This document shows positions 6,810-21,845 of a stretch of DNA of 64,000 nucleotides, in pieces (within the stretch, counting starts at the first letter, position 1; every line of letters starts with the position of its first letter). The stretch is from an uncultured bacterium. Its GTDB lineage: Bacteria > Chloroflexota > UBA5177 > JANWHV01. Under the pieces are notes generated by a model. It saw only the letters and a list, made by a program, of their open reading frames with translations. It did not search any database and was not told the DNA's origin. The position numbers and the translations under genes are program-made. Where the stretch lies: contig CAVSOU010000014.1 of NCBI GenBank assembly GCA_963729625.1, positions 64,001 to 128,000 on the forward strand. The letters run 5' to 3'.

Positions 6810-7130
6810 TAGGGTGCGATAGCCCAACCTCGTTGCGATTGCGCGGGGGACGTCGCACATACACGGTGTCAGGGCAGCACGCGGGCAGGCCTTGTCCTGT
6901 GCGCTGGCGTGCACAAGACATGTTCAGTAGCGTCATGCCACACGCGCTTCAGCTCTGGCCTGCGGCAGCTACCGACAGTCGTCCTGGTGATCGACGATTC
7001 AGGGCTGTGCGAGCAGCCCTTGCCCAGGCCCCGGCAACAGTGCGCGTTCCCGCGTGAGGCACAGAGTGATCTGCCAGCTACTCGATTCGCCGGCGCCATC
7101 CGGCTACGGCAGCGTCACCTGCCATTCACG

Positions 7131-7159
7131 TTGACATGGCACAGGGAAAACGTTATGAT
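7131..7159 (+). promoter_or_regulatory. Sigma70-type promoter for the LacI gene overlapped by a LacI-type operator
   Basis: TTGACA-tggcacagggaaaacgt(17)-TATGAT, near-identical inverted copy of 6781-6809. Confidence 0.75.
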
Positions 7160-7204
7160 GCGTGCCGATACGAATACGGCGCAGTCAAAGGGTGAGAGAT
7201 CAGC

Positions 7205-8251
7205 ATGGCGAATGAGACGATCGAAGACGTCGCCCGGCTGGCCGACGTGAGCATCGGCACGGTCTCTCGGGTGCTTAATGGCACCAAGCGGGTGAGTCCG
7301 CAAACGAGGGCGCGCGTGCTGGCCGCAATCGATCAGCTGCAGTATTCTCGCAATGCTGCAGCTCATCGTCTGCGCAGCCGTTCGACGAAGTCTGCGGCGC
7401 TGATAATGTCTCATCTGGCCAACCCCACGTTCGGACCGATTATCACAGGTATCGAGGAGACTCTCTCCGACCATGGCTACACGCTTATGCTGTGCGACTC
7501 CAATCAATCTGCTCAACGTGAAGCTCAGCATGTCGGCACGGTGGCGCAGGAGCGCATTGCCGGGCTGATCATCATACCATCTACGTTGTCCGGTGCCGTA
7601 CTGGAGCCCTTGTTCAGAAGGCACGTACCCATCGTCTGTCTTGACCGTCGACTGCACGACGTGTCGATCGACACGGTGATCCTGGACAACCGCAGGGCCG
7701 CACGGATGGCAACCGAACACCTGCTCAACCTGGGCCATCGCCGCATTGGACTGATTACGAGCATGATGTCGACGCCAGGCATCGAACGGCGTGAGGGGTT
7801 CGTCCACGCCCTGGAGGCGGCTGGAGTGCCGCTGGACGAGCGGCTCATCCGAGAAGGATCGTACACGGCGGATCGAGCCTATCAGGCTGCCACCGCGATG
7901 CTGAGCGAATCACCTCCGTCGGCACTTGTGGTGGCGAACTTCCCGATGGTGCTCGGAGCAATGCAGGCCCTGCACGAGCACGGTCTGACGGTCCCCGACG
8001 ACGTCTCGCTGGTCGGTGTCGACGACGCGCCCTGGCTCCCGTACATGCGTCCGCCTCTGACGGTAGTCAGCCAGCCCTACAAAGTGCTTGGGCAGACGGC
8101 GGCATGCATGTTGCTCGATCGCATCACAGGCGACAAATCCGGCGTGCCAGCGCGTGAGGTGATGCTCGATCCGTTCATGGTGATCCGGGGCTCGACTGCG
8201 CCGGTCGGCATGGCACGCGCGGGGAGCACCAAGATCTCCAGCACTCACTGA
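7205..8251 (+). CDS. LacI family transcriptional regulator
   Basis: TIEDVARLADVSIGTVSRVLN HTH; VPDDVSLVGVDD, PPLTVV. Confidence 0.95.
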   Translation: MANETIEDVARLADVSIGTVSRVLNGTKRVSPQTRARVLAAIDQLQYSRNAAAHRLRSRSTKSAALIMSHLANPTFGPIITGIEETLSDHGYTLMLCDSNQSAQREAQHVGTVAQERIAGLIIIPSTLSGAVLEPLFRRHVPIVCLDRRLHDVSIDTVILDNRRAARMATEHLLNLGHRRIGLITSMMSTPGIERREGFVHALEAAGVPLDERLIREGSYTADRAYQAATAMLSESPPSALVVANFPMVLGAMQALHEHGLTVPDDVSLVGVDDAPWLPYMRPPLTVVSQPYKVLGQTAACMLLDRITGDKSGVPAREVMLDPFMVIRGSTAPVGMARAGSTKISSTH

Positions 8252-8304
8252 ATTGGGGCGTAGGTACCACCCGAAGCCGGGCCACCGGCCGGACTACAAT
8301 GGGG

Positions 8305-8376
8305 CTGGGGTGCCAGGATTCGAACCTGGGAATGCCGGTTCCAAAGACCGGTGCCTTACCACTTGGCGACACCCCA
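8305..8376 (-). tRNA. tRNA-Gln (anticodon TTG), CCA not encoded
   Basis: TGGGGTGTCGCCAAGTGGTAAGGCACCGGTCTTTGGAACCGGCATTCCCAGGTTCGAATCCTGGCACCCCAG cloverleaf. Confidence 0.95.
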
Positions 8377-8385
8377 TCTGGTAGG

Positions 8386-8414
8386 AAGGTAGCGGTCGTC
8401 GTGCGCGTTGTCAA
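8386..8414 (-). promoter_or_regulatory. Putative promoter for tRNA-Gln
   Basis: Minus strand TTGACA-17 nt-TACCTT immediately upstream of the tRNA. Confidence 0.55.
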
Positions 8415-8637
8415 TGCAAATTCGCGCCGATCCCGTATGATGAATCTCGAGCATCTATTCATCGGGAGAGTGCATTCATGCGAGGATACACGTCGTCACG
8501 AGGTCCTCGAGCGCACGCCGATCCATGCCCTCTTTCCTCGGTTACGCGATACACTTGGCTAGGTTGCGGTTGGCTGTGACTCCGCCCGCTTCAGCCTCCG
8601 CTTCCCTGCATTTCGCACGTCATCACCTGGACGACGA

Positions 8638-10143
8638 GTGACGTTGCGCCTCATCAACCTGGTATTGTTTGCCGCATTGGTGCTCGGAACGTGTGGCATG
8701 GCGACGCCGCTGGCGAGGGCCGGCGGCGCGCCGATCTATGATCTGGGCGGCATTACCCTGCTCGTCCGGACTGGTGACGAACAGATTGATACGGCCGAGC
8801 GCTACGCACTTGCCGTGCTTGGGGCAGACTATGACGGCACGGTGCATACAGCGGCCACGGATTATTACTCCAATCCCTGGGTTCGCGACAGTTTCGCGTG
8901 GGGTATGTTGCCGTCGTTGCTCGATGCAAGCGTGGCGTCGTACACGTCTACCGAGCTCCAGTACTGGTTGCCGCGTCAGCAACGATTTGGCGGCTGGGTC
9001 ACCGCACCCGAATCCGGGTATTTCGACGAGACCGCAATCCTGATTTCCGCCGTGCTGGACGCATATGAGATTTCGGGCGACATCGGGCTGGTCCGTCAGG
9101 CTGTGCCGCGCCTTGTTCGCGGCTGGGCCTGGCTGCAACACAGCTACGTCAGTCCGGACCGCGGCAGCACTTACCTCCTGTATGCCAACGTGCCTCCTCA
9201 CGTTGCGACCGACTGGGCAGACCAGGTGGCGCGCAGTGGATATGCGACGCAACTCGAAGCGCTTTGGTATTCGGCGACGAACAGCCTTTCGATCATGGAG
9301 CGACTGCTGGGGAACCGCACCGCGTCAACCCAATTCGCCACATTTGCCTCTCACATTAGGTCCGACATCAACAGGATGCTCTGGACAACGGCTGCGCCTT
9401 ACGCGACAGATGCAGCCCCAGTCGGAGGTTTTGGCCATTATCGCTCCTGGTTGGGTCCTCGCGACTACTTCGAGCTCGACAGCAACTTCCTGTGTGTACT
9501 CTACGGCATCGCCGACAGTAGCCAGGCGCGAAGTATCACCGGATTCGTCCGGCAGCACCAGACCTATTTGCTTGGTCTGAACACGAGCTACGGCGTTCCG
9601 GCGAAGGTGCTCTACGGCGATTACGCCCCGGCGGATTATGCCGGCAGGCACGAACGCCTGGGCCCGGGCAAGTACCAGAACGGCTATTGGCCTATAGTAG
9701 GGTCTCTGGCCGCGATGGCCTTTGCGACGGTCGGCGACACTGCGGAATCCCGGGCAATTCTCGCACAGATCGGTGCGGCGTTCGTGCGCGAACGCGATGT
9801 TCGCGAGTGGTACACGCAGGACGGCGACGGATCGGGCGCGCCGGCGTTTCAGTGGGCTGCACGCATGTTCGTCACGGCACTGTACTCCGCGTATCTCGGC
9901 ATACAGCCCTACACCGTTGATCGAGGGGAGAGGCTGACGGCAGGAATCCAGCTGCGTGCTCCCGACGGAGGCGGCTCCGCGGATATCGCATTCCATGGAC
10001 GCACTCTTCACGTCTCGGTCGACCGATCAGGGTCGTCGCCCTACGTAGCGCTTAACGGAAGGATTCTACCTGGAACACAGGTTCCTGGCGCGCTGCTGTG
10101 CGCGGGTTGTACTTTGGAATCACGCTGGGGTTCGCCGGCCTGA
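8638..10143 (+). CDS. Secreted (alpha/alpha)6 six-hairpin glycoside hydrolase-like protein
   Basis: Signal peptide; WVRDS, DWAD, YQNGYWP, REWY, FQWAA motifs typical of GH63/GH78/GH116-like barrels. Confidence 0.65.
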   Translation: MTLRLINLVLFAALVLGTCGMATPLARAGGAPIYDLGGITLLVRTGDEQIDTAERYALAVLGADYDGTVHTAATDYYSNPWVRDSFAWGMLPSLLDASVASYTSTELQYWLPRQQRFGGWVTAPESGYFDETAILISAVLDAYEISGDIGLVRQAVPRLVRGWAWLQHSYVSPDRGSTYLLYANVPPHVATDWADQVARSGYATQLEALWYSATNSLSIMERLLGNRTASTQFATFASHIRSDINRMLWTTAAPYATDAAPVGGFGHYRSWLGPRDYFELDSNFLCVLYGIADSSQARSITGFVRQHQTYLLGLNTSYGVPAKVLYGDYAPADYAGRHERLGPGKYQNGYWPIVGSLAAMAFATVGDTAESRAILAQIGAAFVRERDVREWYTQDGDGSGAPAFQWAARMFVTALYSAYLGIQPYTVDRGERLTAGIQLRAPDGGGSADIAFHGRTLHVSVDRSGSSPYVALNGRILPGTQVPGALLCAGCTLESRWGSPA

Positions 10144-10147
10144 GCTG

Positions 10148-10156
10148 TGCTAAAAT
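10148..10156 (+). promoter_or_regulatory. Extended -10 promoter for tyrS
   Basis: TG-c-TAAAAT ~35 nt before ATG 10190. Confidence 0.5.
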
Positions 10157-10189
10157 CCCTAAGAGATTTTGCCGAACGCAAGGTGTAAA

Positions 10190-12247
10190 ATGCGCTTTCG
10201 TATCGATTCCAGACTGCTTGATCGCTTCCCGAATGCATGCATTGGACTCGTTGTCGCCTACGATCTCGACAACCGCGGGAACAGCCCGGTCATCACAAAT
10301 CTGCTGAGGAGCTCCGAATCGGATGTGCGGGAGCGATTCGCGACCGAGAACATGCTCGCGTTGCCCGCGTTTGTCACGTGGCATGAAGCATTTGCCAGGC
10401 TGGGCATGAGCGCAAAGCGATTCAAGATCTCGGTCGAAGCGCTGGCTGCACGTGTGCTGAAGGGCGCGCGACTGCCCGACCTGAATCCCGCCGTCGATCT
10501 GGCCAATGCATTATCCCTCAAGTACTTGCTCCCTCTTGGCGCTCACGACGTCGATCGCCTTCGTGGAGACATCGTCGTCGGCCCCGTACGCCCAGGGGCG
10601 GCGTTCACTCCGATGGGCGGCTCGAAGCCTGAAACGGTCGATCTGGAGGAGATCGTGTACGCGGACGACCAGGAGGTGCGCACGCGAAGGTGGGTGTGGC
10701 GGGAGGGCGAGCATTCACGGGTCACGGCCACGACGCGAACGGTGTTGTTTCCCATCGATGGGTGGATTGGACTCAACGATTCGGATGTGCGTTCGGCAAA
10801 GGTCGAGCTCGCTACCCTCCTCGAGGAGCAGCTCGGCGCGCATGTACGGACGTTCTTCCTGGATCGAAGCACTCCCGAAGCGGTGCTGGAACCCGACGAT
10901 TCGCGTCAGGATCAGCCCATTTCTACCCACGATGGGTTTCGCATGGCCGGAGTCGCGTATCGCGAGATTCCCTCCGAGCCGGTCACCGTCAAGGCGGAAG
11001 CTCTCGAGCCGGTGGTTGAGCAAGCGCGGCCAACGATCCGTCGCGCCGGGCCCTGGGGCAAGCAGGACGCGATCTCCAGCCTGCTGAATCGGGCCACCGA
11101 ACATGTCGTGATCCGTGAAGAGCTGGAGGGGCGGCTGCGAAGCGGCGACCGACTGCGCGTTAAGCTCGGGATCGATCCGACGAGTCCCCATGTGCATATC
11201 GGCCATGCCGTCGTATTGCGGAAGCTTCGTGCCTTTCAGGACCTTGGGCACACGATCTGCCTCGTCATCGGCGACTTCACAGCTCAAATTGGCGACACAT
11301 CCGACAAGTCGGCCATGCGACAGATGCTCTCCGAGGAAGACGTTTATCAGCACCTGACAACCTACAAGAAGCAGATATCTCAAATACTCGACGAGTCGAA
11401 AGTCGAGTGGAGCTACAACACCGACTGGCTAGGCTCGCTTCGCTTCAAGGACGTGGTCGGACTGGCGGCCAATTTCACCGTCGCTCAGATGCTTGAGCGC
11501 GAGAGCTTCGCCAAACGCTACGAAGCTGGACAGTCGATCGGTCTGCAGGAGTTCCTGTACCCGCTGATGCAGGGGTACGATTCGGTCGCTCTGAAAGCAG
11601 ACGTCGAAGCAGGCGGCACGGACCAGCTCTTCAACTTGATTGCCGGTCGCACGTTGCAGCGTGCATTCGGGCAGCCGCCGCAAGCAGTGCTCACCTGCCC
11701 ACTCCTGCTGGGCCTCGACGGCCGCAAGATGAGTAAGTCGTACGGTAACTTCATCGCACTTGACGAGCCGGCCAAAGATATGTACGGGAAAGCAATGTCC
11801 TTTCCGGACGAGCAGATTCTTCCATGCTTCGAGCTTTGCACAGACGTTCCGCTCGATGAGCTGGACACCATCGCGGACGCGCTGGAGGCAGGGCAGAATC
11901 CAATGATCGCGAAGAAGCGGTTGGCCTTCGAGATCACACGACTTTACCACTCCGAGGCGGCGACCCGATCGGCTCAAGAGGCATTTGAACGCGAGGTGCA
12001 GCGCAGGGAACGCCCTGCCGACATTCCAGTCGTCACGCTTGACCGTGGAGGTGAGTGGCTGCTGGCGGACCTCGTCGTGGCAACGGGCCTCTCCAAATCA
12101 AAGGGTGAGGCGCGGCGAAAGGCCGCTGAGGGCGCCGTGTACTACGACAATACACGTGTCATTGATCCACTGGCGTCCATAGAGGTCCGGGATGGCATGG
12201 TGATCAAGCTCGGCAGGCACTATCGCCAACTCCGACTACCCACATAA
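10190..12247 (+). CDS. tyrS: Tyrosine--tRNA ligase with N-terminal B3/4 (PheT-editing-like) domain
   Basis: C-terminal ~390 aa: KLGIDPT, HIGH, YPLMQGYDS, GGTDQLFN, KMSKS, S4-like tail. N-terminal ~230 aa: SVEALAARVLKG, LPDLNPAVDLAN..SLKYLLPLGAHDVD, EIVYAD, RRWVWRE. Confidence 0.93.
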   Translation: MRFRIDSRLLDRFPNACIGLVVAYDLDNRGNSPVITNLLRSSESDVRERFATENMLALPAFVTWHEAFARLGMSAKRFKISVEALAARVLKGARLPDLNPAVDLANALSLKYLLPLGAHDVDRLRGDIVVGPVRPGAAFTPMGGSKPETVDLEEIVYADDQEVRTRRWVWREGEHSRVTATTRTVLFPIDGWIGLNDSDVRSAKVELATLLEEQLGAHVRTFFLDRSTPEAVLEPDDSRQDQPISTHDGFRMAGVAYREIPSEPVTVKAEALEPVVEQARPTIRRAGPWGKQDAISSLLNRATEHVVIREELEGRLRSGDRLRVKLGIDPTSPHVHIGHAVVLRKLRAFQDLGHTICLVIGDFTAQIGDTSDKSAMRQMLSEEDVYQHLTTYKKQISQILDESKVEWSYNTDWLGSLRFKDVVGLAANFTVAQMLERESFAKRYEAGQSIGLQEFLYPLMQGYDSVALKADVEAGGTDQLFNLIAGRTLQRAFGQPPQAVLTCPLLLGLDGRKMSKSYGNFIALDEPAKDMYGKAMSFPDEQILPCFELCTDVPLDELDTIADALEAGQNPMIAKKRLAFEITRLYHSEAATRSAQEAFEREVQRRERPADIPVVTLDRGGEWLLADLVVATGLSKSKGEARRKAAEGAVYYDNTRVIDPLASIEVRDGMVIKLGRHYRQLRLPT

Positions 12248-12327
12248 CGTGGTGCGTGGATGGCGTATGAAGCGCTGAGATCTCGGCAAACATACGTGCA
12301 ACACGTGCTCTATACCGGAAGCCAATC

Positions 12328-13107
12328 ATGGCTGAACTAGGACCTGGTGAAGCAGTCTATCGCAACCTCTGCGAGATGTGGCGCTCAGTTGGACGCCATT
12401 CAGGCGGCAACTCGAGTTTCGTGGTCGAGGATCGCGAAGACATGCTTCTCGTCAAGTCGCAGTTTGCGCATCGCGTGCCGCACATGGTTCTGGATCCGCG
12501 GGTGACGCCGGGGATGGAACACGCATGGACTCGATCGATCATCCGGGAGTGGGCAGGAGAATCGGTCGCAGTCATGGTCGAAATCCCACCGGGCACGGAA
12601 GGTGGAGCTCTGGCTGCTTCGTTGCGCGAGGAAGGGTTCGTACGCGGAATGCGACCGTCCATCGGCATGACGCTCGAAGCGAAGCCAGCGTTTGACGTGC
12701 GAGACGATGCTTCGATTTCGCTCGCCAGCGACGGAGCGGACCTTGACGAGGCTCGCGAGGTGCTTGGGTCGGTGTTTGGCCTTCCGAGCCATGTTTTCGC
12801 ATTCTATACGCCACCGCACGTGGTCCGCACGTTTATTCTGCGTGAGTTTGGGATCGGGGTTGCCGCCGCGTGCCTGTGCCCGTTCGCCGGCGTCGCCGGC
12901 GTGTATAGCGTCGGCGTACTGCCAACTTCTCGCGGGAAAGGGTGTGCGCGACGTCTGGTGCTGTATGTGCTCAGCCAGGCCGCGCAAATGGGGCTGACAA
13001 CCGCCGTGCTGTCCTGTGAACACCACCTGGCACCGCTGTACCGCAGCCTTGGCTTCTCTGTCCGCTGCGAGCTGACAACATATTGGCTGGAGTCAGCGTG
13101 GCGATGA
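12328..13107 (+). CDS. GNAT family N-acetyltransferase
   Basis: VYSVGVLPTSRGKGCA (motif A), LYRSLGF. Confidence 0.8.
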   Translation: MAELGPGEAVYRNLCEMWRSVGRHSGGNSSFVVEDREDMLLVKSQFAHRVPHMVLDPRVTPGMEHAWTRSIIREWAGESVAVMVEIPPGTEGGALAASLREEGFVRGMRPSIGMTLEAKPAFDVRDDASISLASDGADLDEAREVLGSVFGLPSHVFAFYTPPHVVRTFILREFGIGVAAACLCPFAGVAGVYSVGVLPTSRGKGCARRLVLYVLSQAAQMGLTTAVLSCEHHLAPLYRSLGFSVRCELTTYWLESAWR

Positions 13108-13190
13108 TCGGTTCCTGTAGTCCATGTTACTGCCGTCGCGCGGGCTCTGTGCTACCCTAAACAGCGGCTCGCGACACCCCCATCCGATGA

Positions 13191-15596
13191 GTGAACTGGG
13201 ACATGATTACCGACAAAGCGCTGCACACGCTTGAATATGACCGGGTCCTCGGCAAGGTCGCGGGGCACACCAGCTTCTCGCTGAGCAAGGAAATGGTTCT
13301 TGCTCTGCAGCCTTGCACCGAGCTCGACGAAGTGCAAGAACTGCAGGGCCGCGTTGCAGAGGCAATGCGCGTGCTCGATTCGCGCGCGGACGTTTCGCTG
13401 GGCGGCGCGCACGATATTCGCCAGGATGTCACGCGCGCGGCTCTTGGAGGAACACTTGACCCCGCCCAGCTGCTCGAGATCCTGGGCACGCTCGAGTGCG
13501 CTGAGCGCGTTCGCGGCACGCTCGCGCGCCTCACCGCCGACGACTATCCCTGGCTCGTGCAACTCCGAACTCGAATAGGCACGTTCAGGGAAATCATCGC
13601 TTTGATCCTTCAGACTGTGAGCCAGCAGGGTGAGATCCTGGATTCGGCCAGTCCGGCGCTTGCAAAGATTCGTGTCGATCTTCGGCTGGCCTATCAGCGT
13701 CTCATGGATCGCCTGCAGAGCATTCTGAGCTCACAGACGTACCGCAACGCGATACAGGAACCGATCATTACGATGCGCAACGGCCGCTACGTCATACCGG
13801 TGCGATCGGACATGCGTGGCGTCGTGCGGGGCGCCGTGCATGACCATTCGTCAAGCGGGGCAACCCTCTACGTAGAACCATTTCAGACCAGCGAGCTGAA
13901 CAACCGCTGGCGAGAGCTGCAGCTTCAAGAGCAGGAAGAGATCGCGCGCATTCTGCGCGTCATATCCGAACGTATTGCCTCGCAGGCGCCGTCGCTTCTA
14001 ACCACCGTCAATGCACTGGCGGAGTTTGACGTGACGCTCGCAAAGGCGCGTTTTGGCGGCTCCGTGCACGGCACGCTCCCGGTACTGGCAGCCGACGGCA
14101 GGGTCGATTTGCTCCAGGCCCGACATCCGCTGCTGTCCGGACACGTGGTGCCGATCAGTGTGCGGCTGGGCGACGAGTTTCGCCAGCTGCTCGTCACGGG
14201 TCCGAATACTGGCGGCAAGACCGTTGCGCTGAAGACGGTAGGGCTGCTCACGCTCATGGCACAGTCGGGGATTCCCATTCCTGCTGAATCGGGATCGCGC
14301 GTTGCGGTATTCGACGGCGTCTTTGCGGACATCGGCGATGAGCAAAGCATCGAACAAAGTCTCAGTACGTTTAGCAGCCATATGAACAACATTATTCGCT
14401 TACTTGACGAGCTGACCGACCGCAGCTTGCTCTTGCTCGATGAGCTGGGTGCGGGCACCGATCCCGCCGAAGGATCCGCGCTTGCGCGATCCCTGCTCAC
14501 ATACTTGCTAAAGACGCCCGCGCGCGTGATGGCCACAACCCACTATAGCGAGCTCAAGGCCTTTGCCTCGACGACTGACGGCGTGGAGAATGCGAGCGTC
14601 GAGTTTGACATCGACACACTCTCGCCGACGTTTCGCTTGAGCATTGGGTTGCCCGGACGGAGCAACGCACTTGCCATAGCCTCTCGTCTCGGCCTGCGGC
14701 CTGAGATCATCGACGGCTCGAGGGAGTTTCTCAGCTCTGAAGAGACGCGCGTAGAGACCATGCTCGCGCAAATAGCTCATGATCGCGAGACCGCGGCGGA
14801 GCTCTATGCCGCGGCCACCGAGGCTCAGAGACGCGCATCAGAGCTTCGATCTCGGCTCGAACAAGAGGTAGAATCGGTTCTTCACGAGCGAGACAGCATC
14901 CTGCGCGCGGCACGAGCAGCCGCCGAAGCCAGTGTGAGTGACCTTCGGCGCGAGCTTGACCGGGCTGAGGCGGAAATGCGCGTGCATGGCTCAACGCAGA
15001 CGGTCACGCTAGCGGCTCTGCGCGATCGCGTCGAGCGCGCATCCGAGCACCAGGCCAAGGCGCTTGCGGAGCCCGCAAACTCCATCCTCCAGGCAGCGCC
15101 GCCATCAGCTCCGATTTCAGACCGAGCAATTAGCGTGGGCGACCGCATACAGGTACTTCGCACGGGGCAGGACGGGACCGTAAGTGCTATCCCGCCCGGA
15201 AGAAGCGACATTGAAATCCAGATCGGCGCGTTCAAGATGCGCGCCAAGCTGAAGGACGTTCGTCTCGTCGCCCGCTTGGAGGATCTTGCGCCTGTGGACG
15301 AGTCGCGCTATGGTGGCGGGACACAGATAGTAAGAAGCGCAGGACCGGCGCCGAGCCTGGACTTCGACATGCGCGGTTGGAGAGTGGACGAAGTCATACC
15401 CGAGCTCGAGCGCTACCTCAACGACGCATACATGTCGAACATGCCGTTCGTCAGGATCATACATGGGAAGGGAACTGGCGCGCTTCGACAGGTCGTCCGT
15501 GAGGAGCTCGCGACCAATCCGCTGGTCAGCTCGTTTAAGGGCGCCGATGATCACGCGGGTGGCGAAGGAGTGACGATCGCGCACCTGGCCGTGTAG
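13191..15596 (+). CDS. mutS2: Endonuclease MutS2
   Basis: TGPNTGGKT, DIGDEQSIEQSLSTFS, DELGAGTDP, C-terminal Smr IIHGKGTG. Confidence 0.96.
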   Translation: MNWDMITDKALHTLEYDRVLGKVAGHTSFSLSKEMVLALQPCTELDEVQELQGRVAEAMRVLDSRADVSLGGAHDIRQDVTRAALGGTLDPAQLLEILGTLECAERVRGTLARLTADDYPWLVQLRTRIGTFREIIALILQTVSQQGEILDSASPALAKIRVDLRLAYQRLMDRLQSILSSQTYRNAIQEPIITMRNGRYVIPVRSDMRGVVRGAVHDHSSSGATLYVEPFQTSELNNRWRELQLQEQEEIARILRVISERIASQAPSLLTTVNALAEFDVTLAKARFGGSVHGTLPVLAADGRVDLLQARHPLLSGHVVPISVRLGDEFRQLLVTGPNTGGKTVALKTVGLLTLMAQSGIPIPAESGSRVAVFDGVFADIGDEQSIEQSLSTFSSHMNNIIRLLDELTDRSLLLLDELGAGTDPAEGSALARSLLTYLLKTPARVMATTHYSELKAFASTTDGVENASVEFDIDTLSPTFRLSIGLPGRSNALAIASRLGLRPEIIDGSREFLSSEETRVETMLAQIAHDRETAAELYAAATEAQRRASELRSRLEQEVESVLHERDSILRAARAAAEASVSDLRRELDRAEAEMRVHGSTQTVTLAALRDRVERASEHQAKALAEPANSILQAAPPSAPISDRAISVGDRIQVLRTGQDGTVSAIPPGRSDIEIQIGAFKMRAKLKDVRLVARLEDLAPVDESRYGGGTQIVRSAGPAPSLDFDMRGWRVDEVIPELERYLNDAYMSNMPFVRIIHGKGTGALRQVVREELATNPLVSSFKGADDHAGGEGVTIAHLAV

Positions 15597-15599
15597 CTG

Positions 15600-15791
15600 C
15601 TATTGCAGGAGGAGCTCAAAGTTGGGCTCTTCGCGCTCGCCCGTGATGCGCTTCACAAGCCTGCCGGTCAGACCGGCGACATCGTCACCGAAGATCGCGG
15701 CAAGCGTCGATCCCAGGCCGAGACCCAAAGCGATACCAACAAGCATGCCCAGGAAGAACGGCTTCCGCCTCGAAGCAACCTTCTCGCTCAC
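15600..15791 (-). CDS. Small single-TM hypothetical protein
   Basis: FFLGMLVGIALGLGLGSTLAAIFG hydrophobic helix; follows rsfS. Confidence 0.55.
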   Translation of the reverse strand: MSEKVASRRKPFFLGMLVGIALGLGLGSTLAAIFGDDVAGLTGRLVKRITGEREEPNFELLLQ

Positions 15792-15816
15792 ACCCTGCAG
15801 CCAATCAGGTTCAACA

Positions 15817-16209
15817 CTACTGCAACCGCACAACGATCTGCGCCTGCTCCCACAGCTGCTCCAACCGATAGTAGGCTCGTTGATCGGCGGTCATGATGTG
15901 CAGGATCACGTCACCGTAGTCGAGTAGCACCCACCCATCGGCAGGAGTACCCTCGCGTTTGTAGGGCGGAACGTCTAGCGCGTCGAGAGCTTCCTCAACG
16001 CCCTCGGCGATTGCCCGAATCTGTCGTTCGACGACGGCAGAACAGATAACAAAGTAGTCAGCTAGACTTGAGATCTTGCGAACGTCGAGCAGTACGATAT
16101 CCAGTGCTTTTTTGTCGGAGGCCGCGTCCACCATCTTGCGCGCGGTGTCAAGCGAGCTCAGCGCAGGGAGCCTGCTCTCAGGGAGCGAATCTTCGAAATG
16201 CATCGTCAT
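15817..16209 (-). CDS. rsfS: Ribosome silencing factor RsfS
   Basis: DKKALDIVLLDV, ADYFVICS, WVLLDYGDVILHI, RAYYRLEQLW. Confidence 0.95.
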   Translation of the reverse strand: MTMHFEDSLPESRLPALSSLDTARKMVDAASDKKALDIVLLDVRKISSLADYFVICSAVVERQIRAIAEGVEEALDALDVPPYKREGTPADGWVLLDYGDVILHIMTADQRAYYRLEQLWEQAQIVVRLQ

Positions 16210-16356
16210 GTGGCTGATTGTACCATTGGCCACGGAACCACGAAATAGCCTGAGGTGGACGCGACTGCACGATGGCGCCTGATGGAGTCCGTCAGCCATG
16301 CATACCACATGATCCGGTGCAGTCCTCCGGTCGAGTGCCGTTGAGGGCGCTGGCAA

Positions 16357-18888
16357 TTACGTGCTCGGTGTCTCGTAGCTCGATTCCGACAGGCGCACGC
16401 TTCCTTGTTCGTCGCGGAACGAAGCGCCCAGCCGGTGCATCAGCGTCCTGCGGATCCGATTCATCGTCTTGTCGACTTCGTCGTCAGTCAGGGTGCGGTC
16501 ACCAGTCTGAAAATCAAGTGCAAAGGCGAGACTCTTCTTGGCTGCCGGCAGTTGATCGCCCCGGTAGACGTCGAAAAGCGTGATTGCAGCCAAGAGTCCT
16601 TTGGCTGACCGCCTGACTTCATCAAGCACGGTTTCCGCCTGGCACGAGGTGTCGACCACGACGGCGATGTCGCGCTTTGCCACCGGCTGGCGCGGATAGT
16701 CCGCAAAGGTTCGCTCGTGAGAGGCGCGGGCGGCAAGCGCATCGAAATCGAGCTCGGCGATATACGCGCGTCTGGGTGGGAGGTCCCATCGGCCGGCAAT
16801 CGTCGGATGCAGCTCGCCGAGGAATCCGAGCGAGACGCCGCCGAGCTCCAGCGATGCCGCACGGCCAGGGTGCAGCAACGGATGGGCGCGGGCGACCATC
16901 GACCAACCGCCCACTCCTAGCCGCTGAAGCAGCGTCTCGACCACTCCCTTAATATCGAAGAAGTCGAAGCTTTCACGACCAGTTGCCCAGGATACGCCCT
17001 CCCTCATGCCGGCCATGGCGACCGCAAGGACCCGCCGCTCAATGGGCAACCCCTCGCGTTTGGCAACTGAACAGACGTCCAGCTCGAAGAATGCCGCGCG
17101 CTCCTCACCCAAGCGCAGATTGTCGCGAAGCGCCTCGAGCAGTCCAGCCAGCAGCGTTGGGCGCAAGAACTCCCGGTCCGGGCTCAACGGATTCACGACA
17201 CGCACTGCGGAAAAAGTGCTTTCGCCGGAGGCAAGGGCTGTGGGGTTGGGCAATATGTGCGCGAGCCAGGGTTCAGACGCACTTTCTGGCCGAAGCAGGG
17301 ACAGCGAGCGGATGCTTGTGAGACCACTGCTGCTGGCTTCGTCCAGGCCGCAACCAAGCAGGATTGTCCTCGCGGGCCAATAGTGCTGGAGTCCAACGGA
17401 TTCGGGCCGGGGAGGAACCGAACCTTCGAGCAGCGTCTCGGGGATCGCGTCAAAGCCGGTGACGCGCGCCACCTCCTCCACGAGATCGGCGGCTCCGTCC
17501 AGGTCCTCGCGCCACCACGGAACGGTCACTCGGAGAGCGCTGTCACTCACAGTCTTCGTGACGAACCCTAGCGACGTCAGATTGGAAACGATAGTGTCGG
17601 TCGGCCAGTCGACGCCAAGCAGTCGTTTGACTTCTGAGGTCGAGAAATCAATGATCTGGGGTGCCGGATCGTCGCCTCCAACCCACATCACGTCCGATTC
17701 GACACGGCCACCTCCCAGCTCGGCTATCAGCGTTGCAGCGCGCCGCGCGGCCCTTGCCGCCAACTGAACCGGCAGGCCCTTCTCGAAGCGAGTCGACGCC
17801 TCAGTACGAAGGCCGAGCGCGACGCTGGTTCGCCGGATGCTGCGAGCGTTGAAGGTGGCGGCCTCCAGCAGGATGTTCGTGGTCGTCCCGCCAACTTCGG
17901 TGTTCTGGCCGCCCATGATCCCGGCGATGCCGATAGCGTGGCTGGCGTCGACGATCAGCAGCATGTCCTGCGTGAGCTCGCGTTCGACGCCGTCCAACGT
18001 GACGATCTGCTCGCCTTCTCGTGCCCTTCTCACGCGCAGGCTGGGGCCCGCCAGCGTGTCCAGGTCGTACGCGTGCAACGGTTGACCGAGCTCCAACATG
18101 ACATAATTCGTGACATCCACAACATTGTTGATTGCTCGCACTCCGGCGGCCTGGAGCCGGTCGGCAAGCCACTGCGGCGATGGGCCAATTGTAATCCCCC
18201 CGATCACACATGCGGATACACGCCTGCATAGATCAGGGTCTTCGATTGCCAGGGTAACGTCGGTCCGTGTCGTCGCAGGAAAGTCTTCCGGTTGGGGCAG
18301 AGCCCGGAGGGTGCCTCCGGTCACAGCCGATACCTCACGCGCCATGCCATATATCGACAGGCAATCAGGCCTGTTCGGAGTGATATCGAGCTCGAGCACC
18401 CATTCGCCGATCAGATGCGACAAAGGCTGCCCGGGAACGGCCTGCCGGCCCGATCCAAGCTGGATCGCCGAGGCATCAAGGATCAGGATTCCCTCATGAT
18501 TATCATTGAGGCCAAGCTCTTTGCCCGAACAGACCATTCCCTCGGAACGAATGCCCCTCAGCACCTTTCCCTCGAGCGGCCTGTCCTGACCGGGCAGCGT
18601 CTTGCCTACGCCGATATATGGCACGAGAGCGCCCTCGAAGAGATTTGGGGCGCCAGTGACCACAGTTTGGGTCCGGCCGCCGAGGTCGAGCGTAGCCAGC
18701 AGGAGGTTGTCGGCGTTCGGGTGTCTGTCGAGCCGTTGCACCCTGGCGACGAGAATCTCATCGAAGCGGCTACCGGTGTTCTCGACGCGTTCCACGAGCG
18801 ATCCGCTTGACGTCAGACGCTCGGCCAGTTGCTTTGGCGAGAGCTGGACGTCCACGTACGATTGAAGCCATCCCAGCGGTAGTCTCAT
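16357..18888 (-). CDS. pheT: Phenylalanine--tRNA ligase beta subunit
   Basis: HPNAD, ITPNRPDCLS, INNVVDVTNYVMLELGQPLHAYD, FDX-ACB C-terminus. Confidence 0.97.
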   Translation of the reverse strand: MRLPLGWLQSYVDVQLSPKQLAERLTSSGSLVERVENTGSRFDEILVARVQRLDRHPNADNLLLATLDLGGRTQTVVTGAPNLFEGALVPYIGVGKTLPGQDRPLEGKVLRGIRSEGMVCSGKELGLNDNHEGILILDASAIQLGSGRQAVPGQPLSHLIGEWVLELDITPNRPDCLSIYGMAREVSAVTGGTLRALPQPEDFPATTRTDVTLAIEDPDLCRRVSACVIGGITIGPSPQWLADRLQAAGVRAINNVVDVTNYVMLELGQPLHAYDLDTLAGPSLRVRRAREGEQIVTLDGVERELTQDMLLIVDASHAIGIAGIMGGQNTEVGGTTTNILLEAATFNARSIRRTSVALGLRTEASTRFEKGLPVQLAARAARRAATLIAELGGGRVESDVMWVGGDDPAPQIIDFSTSEVKRLLGVDWPTDTIVSNLTSLGFVTKTVSDSALRVTVPWWREDLDGAADLVEEVARVTGFDAIPETLLEGSVPPRPESVGLQHYWPARTILLGCGLDEASSSGLTSIRSLSLLRPESASEPWLAHILPNPTALASGESTFSAVRVVNPLSPDREFLRPTLLAGLLEALRDNLRLGEERAAFFELDVCSVAKREGLPIERRVLAVAMAGMREGVSWATGRESFDFFDIKGVVETLLQRLGVGGWSMVARAHPLLHPGRAASLELGGVSLGFLGELHPTIAGRWDLPPRRAYIAELDFDALAARASHERTFADYPRQPVAKRDIAVVVDTSCQAETVLDEVRRSAKGLLAAITLFDVYRGDQLPAAKKSLAFALDFQTGDRTLTDDEVDKTMNRIRRTLMHRLGASFRDEQGSVRLSESSYETPST

Positions 18889-18923
18889 GCATTACTGCAG
18901 CTTTCGCCGCCATTCCCTTCGAA

Positions 18924-19964
18924 CTACGCAAACTGCCGCAGGAAGCGCAGGTCATTTGCATTCAATAGCCGGATGTCGTTGATGCCGTAGCGCATCATCG
19001 TGATGCGCTCAGGGCCCATGCCGAACGCAAAGCCACTGAACTTGGCGGGATCGTAGTCCATGTTCCTCAGAACCTGAGGATGCACCATTCCTGCGCCGCT
19101 GATCTCCAACCAACCTTCATACTTGCACGTGCGGCAGCCTTCTCCACCACAGACGAGACACGAAAAATCGAATTCGGCGCTGGGTTCGGTGAACTGGAAA
19201 TGATGCGGGCGGAACCGCACTTTGCAGCCCAGTATTTGCTTGGCAAAGCTGGCGAGAACGCCTTTCAAGTCACTGAAGGTCACATGCTTATCCACTGCCA
19301 GACCTTCGCACTGCCAGAAGTAGCTCAAATGCGAGGCATCTTCCTGATCGCGGCGGAAACACCGCCCGGGAGCGATGATCCGCACAGGAGGACGTTGGCT
19401 CAGCATCACGCGCGCTTGCACGGGCGACGTATGCGTGCGCAGCACGATGCCTCCGGGCACATCCACGTAGAAGGTGTCCATCGTATCGCGTGATGGACTG
19501 TCCTGCGGGATGTTAAGCAGCTCGAAGTTGTACTTGTCCCACTCGACCTCCGGCCCTTCGGCCACCGTGAAACCCATAGAGCCAAAGATCCGTACCAGGT
19601 CACGCAGCGTTTCACGCACAGGATGAGGCAGACCGAGCCGCGGGTTTCTGGCTGGAAGGCTGACGTCGACGGCTTCTCGATCGAGACTGTTCAGCAAGGC
19701 GGCCTGCTGGAGACTCGCACGCGCCGCTTCGTGCGCCGCCTCGAGCACCTTCTTCGCCTCGTTCATGGCCTGGCCTGCTACCGGCCGTTCTTCTCGCGGA
19801 AGTGCGCCTAACCCCTTGAAATGAGCGGTCAGCGCTCCGTTCGTGCCGAGGTACTTGATGCGCCACTGTTCCAGGGCAGCCAGGCCATCGAGACCGATGA
19901 GCGCGGATTCTGCTTCGCTGCGAAGCGCCTGTAGCCGCGCCACAAACTCGTGTGCCTCATTCAC
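18924..19964 (-). CDS. pheS: Phenylalanine--tRNA ligase alpha subunit
   Basis: LRTHTSPVQ, FQFTEPSAE, GAGMVHP, GFAFGMGPER. Confidence 0.97.
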   Translation of the reverse strand: MNEAHEFVARLQALRSEAESALIGLDGLAALEQWRIKYLGTNGALTAHFKGLGALPREERPVAGQAMNEAKKVLEAAHEAARASLQQAALLNSLDREAVDVSLPARNPRLGLPHPVRETLRDLVRIFGSMGFTVAEGPEVEWDKYNFELLNIPQDSPSRDTMDTFYVDVPGGIVLRTHTSPVQARVMLSQRPPVRIIAPGRCFRRDQEDASHLSYFWQCEGLAVDKHVTFSDLKGVLASFAKQILGCKVRFRPHHFQFTEPSAEFDFSCLVCGGEGCRTCKYEGWLEISGAGMVHPQVLRNMDYDPAKFSGFAFGMGPERITMMRYGINDIRLLNANDLRFLRQFA

Positions 19965-20069
19965 GTTGAAAGTACTCCATCATCTTCTCATTGCCATCCC
20001 TGGCGTTCTTCAGCAGTCAACCGTTGCCCGCATCGGCTTCGCCGTGCAACGGGAACAGGCTGGCTCATC

Positions 20070-20879
20070 TCATCGCATCGGCTTGATGCGGACATCCGGC
20101 CGCTCGGACCGCGCCAATCCAAGGTGTTCGGCAAGATCGCCCTTGTTCAAAGCGATGCAAAGGCGATCAAACGAGTCGACGAAGAGCAACGCGGCACCTA
20201 CCGGAGCGTCGTCAAACGTGCGCGTGATCTGAACCTCGATCACCTTGTTGCCGACGTCGACGGATGCTTGCATGGCGGCGCCAAGCACCGCAAGAAGATC
20301 GGCGGGAGCGGCCAGAGCCAGGCTGCCAAATTCATTGACTGCTACCACCTTCGTGCGTATCTCATCACCGGCGATCGTGCTGACAGGCTCAAGTAGTCTC
20401 ACCAGCGTCGAGTGGTCGATGGTAGGTCCCAACAGGTGCATTGTCACGCCGTGCGAGACATGGGCAGCCGCAGGGCAAAAGATATCGCGCGCGTGGAATG
20501 TATTCGACACAGGCTGGTGGCGGAAGTCCGGGACCGTCAGCTCGACCGCCGATTCTATGCCACCGAGCGCCTCAGCGGCCGCGATCAGCAGGCCGTTGTC
20601 GGGTCCAATCAGGATGTCGCCGCGCCGCGCCGCAATGGCGATCGGCCTGCGCATTGTGCCAACGCCGGGATCGACAACTGCCACGTGCACGCATTGCGGA
20701 AAATGGCGAACCACCGATCGAAGCATCCAGGAGCCGGACTCGACGTCAAAATGCGGGATGCTGTGCGAGATGTCGACGACTATCGCTCGCGGGCTAATCG
20801 AGGCGATAACGCCCTTGCACTGGCCCACCGACGAATCGCTCAAGCCGAAGTCCGTGAGAAACGAGATAATGGCGTCCAC
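20070..20879 (-). CDS. DUF62 SAM hydroxide adenosyltransferase (SAM hydrolase; chlorinase/fluorinase superfamily)
   Basis: FLTDFG, VVDPGVGTMRR, GPDNG, SNTFHARDIF (Asp-Arg-His triad of the hydrolase subgroup). Confidence 0.9.
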   Translation of the reverse strand: MDAIISFLTDFGLSDSSVGQCKGVIASISPRAIVVDISHSIPHFDVESGSWMLRSVVRHFPQCVHVAVVDPGVGTMRRPIAIAARRGDILIGPDNGLLIAAAEALGGIESAVELTVPDFRHQPVSNTFHARDIFCPAAAHVSHGVTMHLLGPTIDHSTLVRLLEPVSTIAGDEIRTKVVAVNEFGSLALAAPADLLAVLGAAMQASVDVGNKVIEVQITRTFDDAPVGAALLFVDSFDRLCIALNKGDLAEHLGLARSERPDVRIKPMR

Positions 20880-20889
20880 GACCTTCACC

Positions 20890-21160
20890 GCCCTGAATAA
20901 CGCGCTGAACAACATGACAGCCGGACAATCGCTGGGGCGAAGCCGGCTGCGTCGCGGTACCACCCAGATTCACGGCGAGCCAAACAGGTTCGCCGCCTCT
21001 GCCCCGGGTAACGGTCGGTGCCGCGGCAGCCTTGCGCGCGACGCGCTGAACTGCCGGCTCAGGAGTGAATAACGCGGTTCGTCGCCGGTTCAAGCGCTTG
21101 CAGCCGCGGCGCTTAATCTCTGGAAATGGCGTGAACTTCCGCGCGCGTCTCCGTCACTGC
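20890..21160 (-). ncRNA. T-box riboswitch, Phe (UUC specifier)
   Basis: Minus strand: GCAGTGA...TGAGC GA-motif, AGAGA bulge, GCTG distal loop, TTC+A specifier at 21069-21067, CCGTTA stem IIA/B, T-box AATCTGGGTGGTACCGCG (20970-20953) with GCG/CGC and GGG/CCC antiterminator pairing. Confidence 0.9.
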
Positions 21161-21186
21161 GTGTTGACAATGTATCACAGAGCGAT

Positions 21187-21215
21187 TTGCCTGCCGAGGA
21201 TGCCTGCTCTACACT
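21187..21215 (+). promoter_or_regulatory. Putative promoter for tRNA-Ile2
   Basis: TTGCCT-17 nt-TACACT, 20 nt upstream of the tRNA. Confidence 0.45.
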
Positions 21216-21234
21216 CGAAGCATGCGCGGCGCGA

Positions 21235-21307
21235 GGGCCCTTAGCTCAGCGGTTAGAGCTCCCGACTCATAATCGGTTGGTCCCCGGTTCGAATCCGGGA
21301 GGGCCCA
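21235..21307 (+). tRNA. tRNA with CAT anticodon, most likely tRNA-Ile2 (lysidine)
   Basis: GGGCCCTTAGCTCAGCGGTTAGAGC...GACTCATAATC...GGTTCGAATCC...GGGCCCA; C4-G69/C5-G68 acceptor pairs like E. coli ileX. Confidence 0.9.
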
Positions 21308-21319
21308 CTCTTCTCTTGA
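21266..21319 (+). repeat. attL direct repeat (54 bp)
   Basis: ctcataatcggttggtccccggttcgaatccgggagggcccactcttctcttga. Confidence 0.93.
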
Positions 21320-21399
21320 ATGAGAGAAACCAACAAAGCCAACGGGCCGATTGGCTGCAAGCACATCGTTCCTCATCGCCGAGAATCCGATGGCCAAGA

Positions 21400-21575
21400 T
21401 GCGTCGCCCATGGTCGGACAGAAGCTTGTCCCCGTCGCATCCGACGACGACCTGGATAAGCTGCTGAACACCGTGCGCGGACACGACTTTCTCTCGATTC
21501 GGGATCGGGCCATCATCGCGCTTCTTGCCGACACAGGCATGCGACTTACCGCGTGCACGGACATCGAGGTAGCGA
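21400..21575 (+). pseudogene. Tyrosine recombinase/integrase fragment
   Basis: SDDDLDKLLNTV...RDRAIIALLADTGMR (box I catalytic Arg); no HxxR or Tyr box follows. Confidence 0.75.
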
Positions 21576-21845
21576 GTCCCCGCGGTTCCCAGAACGGGCT
21601 GCCCATCTCCCGCCTGGTTCCCATGCAGGAGGCTGGGACTCTCCCATCGCCCGTCGATCCGCTAGCCCTGACCCTGGCACGCCCGACGGCGCTGCGACGC
21701 CTGTTCCAGTCGCTGCGGCACGCCCGCGGTGTACGCAGCCGGTGCCGGTCGGAAGAGATTCAGCCGGCATTGATCGACGCGGTCGCTCCTGCGGGGCGCA
21801 ACTTTGCAGCATATGTCCCCTTTCTAGCCGAGGCCAGAGAGTGCA

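Follow-up and report, generated by a model that had tools for sequence, protein, structure and literature searches.

A single gene in a 64,000-nucleotide stretch of DNA from an uncultured Chloroflexota bacterium (the window, meaning that whole stretch) encodes a B3/4 aminoacyl-tRNA deacylase-like domain in one chain with a complete tyrosyl-tRNA synthetase (TyrRS). The original prediction for this locus, made from the letters alone, had described one uninterrupted open reading frame (ORF) of 685 amino acids, and that is what we find at 10190-12247 (+), reading from ATG 10190 to the stop codon. The frame is also open from an alternative TTG at 10169 with the same end at 12247 (+), and the ATG 10190 start, which lies 4 nucleotides after a Shine-Dalgarno-like AAGGTG (10180-10185), fits an M-x-F N-terminus (M1/F3) that is conserved among orthologues. 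All of the B3/4 and TyrRS motifs named in the prediction are present: SVEAL (residues 81-85), LPDLNPAVDLAN (95-106), LPLGAHD (114-120), RRWVWR (166-171), HIGH (336-339), and KMSKS (513-517). Profile hidden Markov model searches, suggested with the prediction as a check, identified Pfam B3_4 (PF03483) at residues 64-192 (E 4.3e-25; 88.7 bits against a gathering cut-off of 29.3) and tRNA-synt_1b at residues 320-601 (E 2.7e-74), along with a weak S4 match and a SYY_C-terminal match at residues 610-667 that scores slightly below its cut-off (26.8 against 27 bits). The features of the locus are as follows, with CtdA denoting the closest solved relative of the N-terminal domain.

10180..10185, + strand: Shine-Dalgarno-like AAGGTG, read from the sequence
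10190..12247, + strand: whole fused gene, 685 amino acids plus stop, from the ORF and the orthologue N-terminus
10190..10885, + strand: CtdA-type B3/4 aminoacyl-tRNA deacylase-like domain, residues 1-232, from Pfam, Protein Data Bank (PDB) matches, the domain model and conservation
10505..10507, + strand: Asn106, equivalent to CtdA N105, from alignment to 9mkl
10538..10546, + strand: Gly117-Ala118-His119, with Gly117 equivalent to CtdA G116 and His119 in place of CtdA pocket residue E118, from alignment
10682..10705, + strand: Thr165 to Glu172 (TRRWVWRE), with Thr165 in place of CtdA C166 and Glu172 at CtdA Q173, from alignment
10751..10756, + strand: Pro188-Ile189, with Ile189 equivalent to CtdA pocket residue I189 and Pro188 clade-specific, from alignment and clade comparison
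10886..11065, + strand: linker, residues 233-292, predicted disordered, from model confidence and orthologue conservation
10934..10951, + strand: GFRMAG linker motif, residues 249-254, in which Met252 is ATG 10943
11066..11992, + strand: TyrRS catalytic (Rossmann) region, residues 293-601, from Pfam, NCBIfam and solved structures
11195..11206 and 11726..11740, + strand: HIGH and KMSKS motifs, respectively, within the TyrRS catalytic region
11993..12244, + strand: C-terminal S4-like tRNA-binding domain of TyrRS, residues 602-685, from a Pfam match just under cut-off and model confidence (pLDDT) above 90
17710..18228, - strand: B3/4 domain of the genome's own PheT, given for context (PF03483, 227.9 bits, in an 844-residue open frame)

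By sequence, the N-terminal domain is closest to CtdA, a free-standing canavanyl-tRNA-Arg deacylase (PDB 9f7e, E 2e-19; 9mkl, E 5e-16) described in three papers (PMC10018355, PMC12268091, PMC12449066); PheRS beta chains match at E ~1e-3. A model of the domain alone (predicted local distance difference test, pLDDT, 90.4; predicted template modelling score, pTM, 0.89) matches CtdA in fold comparison (VIA) with Z 25.2 over 220 of its 231 residues (9f7e) and Z 25.1 over 219 residues (9mkl), versus Z ~14 over ~170 residues for PheRS beta B3/B4. Sequence and predicted fold both place the domain with the free-standing CtdA type rather than the PheT type, in line with the stand-alone-type domain that had been predicted. 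The likeness covers the whole fold, including a helical insert specific to CtdA, and extends to the family core with its essential Asn and Gly; CtdA, however, is free-standing and belongs to the ArgRS system, whereas the window domain shares one ORF with TyrRS. With PheRS beta B3/B4 (6oz5, 1pys) the domain shares PF03483, the core fold, an aromatic residue or His at the position of E. coli F267, and an Asn equivalent to N254 (PMC12449066). The inserts differ, the sequence similarity is marginal, and Gly117 aligns with the PheRS editing-site His (E. coli H265; PLGAHD versus PMHAFD). In addition, the PheRS domain lies inside PheT and hydrolyses Tyr- or meta-tyrosyl (m-Tyr)-tRNA-Phe, whereas the window domain is N-terminal on TyrRS, in a protein where a Pfam scan finds no other PheT domain.

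The CtdA substrate pocket comprises N105, G116, E118, C166, Q173, and I189, and the substitutions N105A, G116H/W, and Q173G each inactivate the enzyme (PMC12449066). In the 9mkl alignment, the corresponding residues of the window protein are N106, G117, H119, T165, E172, and I189. The Asn and Gly that CtdA needs for activity are therefore retained, and the residues that shape its canavanine pocket (E118, C166, and Q173) are altered, with Gln in place of Glu172 in most of the clade and with a clade-specific proline, Pro188, next to Ile189. The same publication describes a CtdA-2 clade, separate from CtdA-1, that lacks Cys166 and occurs mainly in Chloroflexi, Bacillota, and archaea (PMC12449066). 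Compared with that description, Thr165 and the taxon spread of our relatives fit, and the window domain probably corresponds to the CtdA-2 group by its taxa and its loss of Cys166.

A search with the domain alone recovered 2609 relatives at E<=1e-3 (exhaustive). We sorted the best 150 representatives by local phmmer, with Pfam and NCBIfam checks on sets of 30 and 12: 116 are free-standing or otherwise combined, 15 are fused to TyrRS, 15 to ArgRS (P0136, P0165, P0177, P0205 and others), two to class I LysRS (one N-terminal, one C-terminal), and two to class II LysRS. LysRS-fused B3/4 proteins had been mentioned in the original prediction, and they do exist (P0215, P0221, P0237, and P0244, among the Lys/ArgRS-fused set). 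The ArgRS- and LysRS-fused domains (P0205, P0215, P0221, P0237 and others) belong to the same domain family and share the order of N-terminal domain, linker, and complete synthetase, except in P0237, where the domain is C-terminal. They differ from the window protein in falling in other clades, in having an acidic residue at position 119 (E or D), and in mostly keeping Cys165 as in CtdA.

Several rarer combinations also occur. P0136 has two B3/4 copies ahead of ArgRS, and P0187 (825 amino acids, one cluster representative) has a YbaK-type tRNA_edit domain, then B3/4, then TyrRS, and so combines two unrelated deacylase folds. Single cases join GNAT to B3/4 (P0239), B3/4 to a GatA-like amidase (P0252), and B3/4 to a YtpR-like tRNA_bind domain (P0218), and P0058 is a 1148-residue B3/4-TyrRS protein with glycosyltransferase domains.

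We built two B3/4 trees, one of 166 rows and one of 94 rows with a mixture model, from the 150 matches closest to our His-type query plus 16 to 20 fused proteins added by hand; both are quick-search trees of uncertain root. In both, a branch with a Shimodaira-Hasegawa-like approximate likelihood ratio test (SH-aLRT) support of 97 has every TyrRS-fused domain on one side of it and none of the 19 ArgRS- or LysRS-fused domains on that side. The pocket differs across this branch. Of the 88 rows in the TyrRS-type clade, 84 have His at position 119 and 85 have Thr at position 165; of the 77 other rows, 54 have Glu or Asp at 119 and 51 have Cys at 165. Pro188 is found in 91% of clade rows and in 0% of the others. 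F68, H119, T165, and P188 discriminate best between the clade and the remaining rows, and three of these four coincide with or adjoin the CtdA pocket residues as mapped here.

The rows can also be sorted by fusion partner. Position 119 is His in 30 of 32 TyrRS-fused domains (the remaining two have Phe and Tyr), Glu in 15 of 15 ArgRS-fused domains, and Asp in three and Glu in one of four LysRS-fused domains; at position 165, 31 of the 32 TyrRS fusions have Thr, and nine of the 15 ArgRS fusions have Cys. PheRS, which binds Tyr in its pocket, has Phe or Tyr at the position aligned with 119. By these alignments, the residue at pocket position 119 goes with the synthetase to which the domain is fused. 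If every domain were to bind an analogue of the amino acid that its partner handles, one would expect acidic pockets on the enzymes for basic amino acids and a His or aromatic residue on TyrRS, as is seen.

Beneath these differences lies a common core. Over 165 family rows, S81, E83, L85, R88, N106, G117, D120, R166, W168, W170, and R171 are at least 85% conserved; Asn106 is Asn in 156 of these rows and in 31 of the 32 TyrRS-fused ones, Gly117 is kept in 31 of those 32, and W168 is invariant in all 76 fused orthologues. Across the 76 orthologues, 46 positions of the B3/4 domain are at least 90% conserved, and the mean top-residue frequency is 0.59 for the domain against 0.66 for the TyrRS core and 0.18 for the linker. 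By this measure, the B3/4 domain and the TyrRS core are under similar constraint.

In the TyrRS part, NCBIfam tyrS (TIGR00234) matches residues 293-660 with 337 bits against a cut-off of 113.8, which together with HIGH and KMSKS bears out the prediction of a complete TyrRS downstream of the linker. The nearest solved TyrRS structures are 6bqy (E 2e-95) and the T. thermophilus enzyme 1h3e (E 7e-87), and by sequence the enzyme is complete and of the T. thermophilus/6bqy subtype. The fused gene is the only TyrRS found in this 5.4-Mb, 87%-complete genome, where the runner-up tyrS match scores 30.6 bits, and the B3/4 domain therefore rides on an essential enzyme. Apart from the fused gene, B3/4 occurs in the genome only in PheT (PF03483, 227.9 bits), also inside the window. 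Residues D369, Y457, Q461, and D464 align to B. stearothermophilus D78, Y169, Q173, and D176, which we take to be tyrosine-binding residues, and are invariant in the 76 fused orthologues. We considered a relaxed TyrRS active site and rejected it on account of this invariance. The genome has one normal tRNA-Tyr of 84 nucleotides with a long variable arm (C7:254503-254586). ARAGORN also reported a second tRNA-Tyr(gta) of 79 nucleotides with a poor cloverleaf (G000:C11:247911-247989), which may be a false call or a pseudo-tRNA.

Among the best 120 listed database matches to the whole protein, 116 carry both parts in one chain (635-1148 amino acids), an architecture that the prediction had suggested looking for in related genomes, and the fusion is thus neither chance nor an assembly artefact. 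Identity falls to ~43%, and the matches with a source name are Chloroflexota "tyrosine--tRNA ligase" entries. An AlphaFold2 model of the whole protein (76 orthologues in the alignment) has a mean pLDDT of 90.5, and its pTM of 0.61 leaves the mutual placement of the B3/4 and TyrRS domains undefined. Two complex predictions of the B3/4 domain with the TyrRS body, run without controls, scored 0.00 and are uninformative on docking. A linker of ~60 residues had been predicted and is real (residues 233-292): pLDDT drops below 50 over 236-245 and 250-282, between flanking domains above 90. Conservation of the linker, which the prediction had suggested looking for, did not hold, given the mean top-residue frequency noted above. 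Its length ranges from 8 to 75 amino acids (median 35) across the 76 orthologues, many having only 8-9. A GFxMxG pattern occurs in the linker of 27 of 126 fused proteins, in the window as GFRMAG continuing to YRE, and AlphaFold places two short low-confidence strands at this motif.

We sampled 301 genomes of the phylum. A CtdA-like match (E<=1e-5) occurs in 84 of them, and in at least 20, including the window genome and the unpublished G226 (which bears on none of the conclusions) and spanning nine family codes, the match lies in a frame of 650-761 amino acids; all 12 fetched loci of this type have TyrRS in the same ORF. Of the best 80 loci in named genomes, 24 are fused and 56 free-standing. 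All but one of the 24 fused loci carry a Chloroflexota label, with Chloroflexia, Dehalococcoidales, and Ca. Chlorohelix represented. The free-standing ones come from Bacillota, Desulfobacterota, Synergistota, and other groups, and the Bacillota among them include the cultured Desulforamulus aeronauticus DSM 10349 and Paenibacillus apiarius.

We placed 29 fused and 17 unfused Chloroflexota TyrRS enzymes in one tree, where they fall into two subtypes. The T. thermophilus-like subtype takes in every fused enzyme together with four unfused ones. The 13 remaining unfused enzymes, among them those from the class to which the window belongs, are of the B. stearothermophilus-like subtype, and the label "fused" requires only two changes on the tree. 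Some groupings recur in the B3/4 and TyrRS trees (for example the window protein, P0001, with P0003, and P0008 with P0012), in keeping with prolonged inheritance as one gene. Relatives with two separate genes, named in the original prediction as a finding that would speak against the fusion, are found only as a minority: two of the four unfused genomes of the same subtype (G171 and G238) carry B3/4 as a separate gene at another locus, and no TyrRS lies within ~4 kb of it. The window genus uses a T. thermophilus-type TyrRS and five sampled relatives of the same class (families f2 and f3; L106-L110) use the B. stearothermophilus type, so the TyrRS subtype has been swapped within the class.

A second fusion, at locus L090:824-2773, comes from a metagenome-assembled genome labelled Erysipelotrichaceae (Bacilli), and here a B3/4 domain with the His/Thr pocket is joined to the other TyrRS subtype. 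Its TyrRS is of the B. stearothermophilus/S. aureus type (1jii, E 4e-110; 2ts1, E 6e-110), its B3/4 domain is sister to free-standing proteins (SH-aLRT 99), and its lineage is represented by 13 full-length 90%-identity clusters from several sources (P0266-P0278). As judged from both parts of the protein, the Bacilli fusion is independent of the Chloroflexota fusion and young.

From the observed architecture, family membership, conservation, recurrence, and pocket-partner covariation, we infer a hydrolytic activity that has tRNA-Tyr as its target and spares Tyr-tRNA-Tyr. The explanation we favour, and consider somewhat probable, is that the N-terminal domain is an active aminoacyl-tRNA deacylase tethered to TyrRS that clears some tyrosine look-alike from tRNA-Tyr. 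A housekeeping TyrRS would charge tRNA-Tyr, with the CtdA-family deacylase joined to its N-terminus through a flexible tether. The B3/4 pocket, with His119, Thr165, and Pro188 where CtdA has Glu, Cys, and a residue other than Pro, would accept an aromatic tyrosine look-alike and not tyrosine itself, and the mischarged tRNA-Tyr would be hydrolysed after its 3' end flips over or upon recapture straight after release. Recapture or 3'-end sampling would suit the protein better than a fixed translocation channel, since the linker varies from 8 to 75 residues and is unconserved and since free homologues exist. CtdA discriminates canavanine from arginine, and we propose the same logic for the TyrRS-fused domain and a tyrosine analogue. 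Candidate analogues include L-DOPA, ring-substituted tyrosines, and natural antimetabolites such as azatyrosine. More tentatively, it is possible that the His/Thr-pocket CtdA branch as a whole is dedicated to tRNA-Tyr proofreading against a natural tyrosine antimetabolite, acting in cis where it is fused (many Chloroflexota and a Bacilli lineage) and in trans where it is free (many Bacillota, Desulfobacterota, and Synergistota). The branch might then be one arm of a modular system in which a single deacylase fold was joined time and again to ArgRS, LysRS, and TyrRS, its pocket retuned for each partner.

A number of observations weigh against a proofreading TyrRS. The canonical tyrosine-binding residues give no sign, at the sequence level, of a relaxed synthetic site that would need editing, and 217 of the 301 sampled genomes yield no CtdA-like match at E<=1e-5, nor does any of the 13 unfused enzymes of the B. 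stearothermophilus-like subtype in our tree have a B3/4 domain. Free-standing close relatives lack a TyrRS within ~4 kb at all eight of eight loci, and 202 ORFs flanking the 56 free-standing loci include no conserved neighbour, the largest shared family occurring in four loci; these neighbours did not hint at a substrate. Few independent events underlie the pocket-partner pattern: on the trees the TyrRS label must change at least five times and the ArgRS label two to four times, some of these changes may be losses, and in the smaller tree the PheT outgroup attached inside the TyrRS-type side. At position 172, the window protein itself carries Glu, unlike 79 of the 88 proteins in the clade, which carry Gln. 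Finally, CtdA-2-like proteins are described as uncharacterised (PMC12449066), and hydrolysis is an extrapolation because the pocket differs from that of the only characterised members.

The original prediction had allowed for either a proofreading TyrRS or a tethered trans-editor, and both readings fit the conservation, the pocket-partner covariation, and the two independent fusions. As a trans-editor, the domain would act on tRNA-Phe or other tRNAs, removing aromatic analogues (m-Tyr, DOPA, or Tyr itself), and its place on TyrRS would serve only co-expression or localisation. The disordered linker of 8 to 75 residues is compatible with this, as are the free-standing state of close homologues in many phyla (56 of the best 80 loci), the separation of domain and tyrS in G171 and G238, and the action of PheRS B3/B4, a structural relative, on tRNA-Phe (PMC12449066). 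The genome's PheT, however, already has a full B3/4 domain (227.9 bits), and TyrRS was chosen in both independent fusions, with none of 36 TyrRS-type fused domains on another synthetase. The ArgRS- and LysRS-fused relatives, moreover, have pockets suited to their own partner's class of amino acid. We therefore regard a trans-editor as unlikely.

The domain could instead be a non-catalytic accessory that aids tRNA-Tyr binding or hand-over, or that regulates TyrRS, without hydrolysis. Appended tRNA-binding domains are common on synthetases, and a fusion of B3/4 to tRNA_bind is known (P0218). Yet the CtdA-essential Asn and Gly and the pocket-lining positions are among the most conserved (H119 95%, T165 97%, and N106 98% within the TyrRS-type clade), a pattern to be expected of a ligand pocket and not of a mere RNA-binding surface, which makes this role less likely still. 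D-Tyr, the classic non-cognate TyrRS substrate, had been listed among the substrates to assay in the original prediction, and a D-Tyr-tRNA-Tyr deacylase could supplement or replace DTD. In genus g14, three of four fusion-carrying genomes gave no DTD (PF02580) match (G027, G063, and G001, the last 99% complete), as such a role would allow. The window genome nevertheless has a DTD gene (E 1.3e-49), as do 16 of the 20 other fusion-carrying genomes searched, and with DTD present in 17 of 21 we consider D-Tyr a most improbable target. Equally improbable is a minor fusion product beside a free TyrRS made from ATG 10943, the internal start given as an example in the original prediction: Met252 does lie in the GFxMxG motif shared by 27 of 126 fused proteins, and four of the best 120 listed matches are TyrRS-only (420-484 amino acids), but many orthologues have linkers of 8-9 residues without such a Met, the four short proteins lie on 2-9 kb contigs and may be truncated calls, and the motif is conserved at the protein level.

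Returning to a proofreading TyrRS, comparable cases are the cis/trans editing pairs named in PMC12449066, namely the ProRS INS domain with YbaK/ProXp, the AlaRS editing domain with AlaX, and the ThrRS N2 domain with ThrRS-ed. There too one deacylase fold is found both free-standing and built into a synthetase; the difference is that the fold is another one. In a text search of the accessible parts of the three CtdA papers (PMC10018355, PMC12268091, PMC12449066), the words "fused" and "fusion" do not occur, and the accessible supplement table of CtdA carriers (PMC12449066) contains neither "tyrosine" nor "tyrosyl", and so no tyrosine-ligase entries. A full-text literature search, with most subscription journals outside its scope, returned no paper on a B3/4-TyrRS or B3/4-ArgRS fusion, and one may be in print. 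Four points appear new here: a second fusion of independent origin, the confinement of the Chloroflexota fusion to a single TyrRS subtype, the covariation of pocket and partner, and the co-occurrence with DTD. Overall, this is a synthetase that has acquired an already known editing fold.

These results are of real interest to the aminoacyl-tRNA synthetase field. In textbook accounts, TyrRS depends solely on its synthetic site, and to our knowledge it is not listed among the synthetases that have an editing domain. That a fusion to a deacylase fold is conserved and has evolved twice suggests that certain bacteria meet a tyrosine analogue that slips past the TyrRS synthetic site. If so, TyrRS would join the synthetases that edit, the fusion would indicate a natural antimetabolite, or a kind of damage, that has gone unrecognised, and the large CtdA-2-like family, including its members in gut Bacillota, would gain a function. 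The match of pocket to partner over ArgRS, LysRS, and TyrRS fusions offers a testable rule for predicting the targets of free-standing B3/4 proteins, and such editing modules could help clean up engineered TyrRS/tRNA pairs in genetic code expansion.

For regulation of the gene, an Rfam scan of 7000-22000 found only two tRNAs and no RNA leader, a promoter scan of 9800-13300 gave no sites, and terminator-like sites around the gene are no commoner than in shuffled sequence. The listed sequencing-run matches include no RNA run; three DNA runs match with small shares of words (0.06-0.14). Upstream of the fusion lies a gene for a 501-residue protein (8638-10143, +) with a weak match to MGH1-like glycoside hydrolases (E 3.4e-7). 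A GNAT acetyltransferase gene (12328-13107, +) lies 81 nucleotides downstream of the fusion and is followed by MutS2 (13191-15596). The order of glycoside-hydrolase-like gene, tyrS fusion, GNAT, and MutS2 is kept solely within the genus (G190 and G172), and we therefore dropped the GNAT protein as a functional partner. GNAT-B3/4 fusions do exist elsewhere, which leaves the downstream GNAT as a weak lead.

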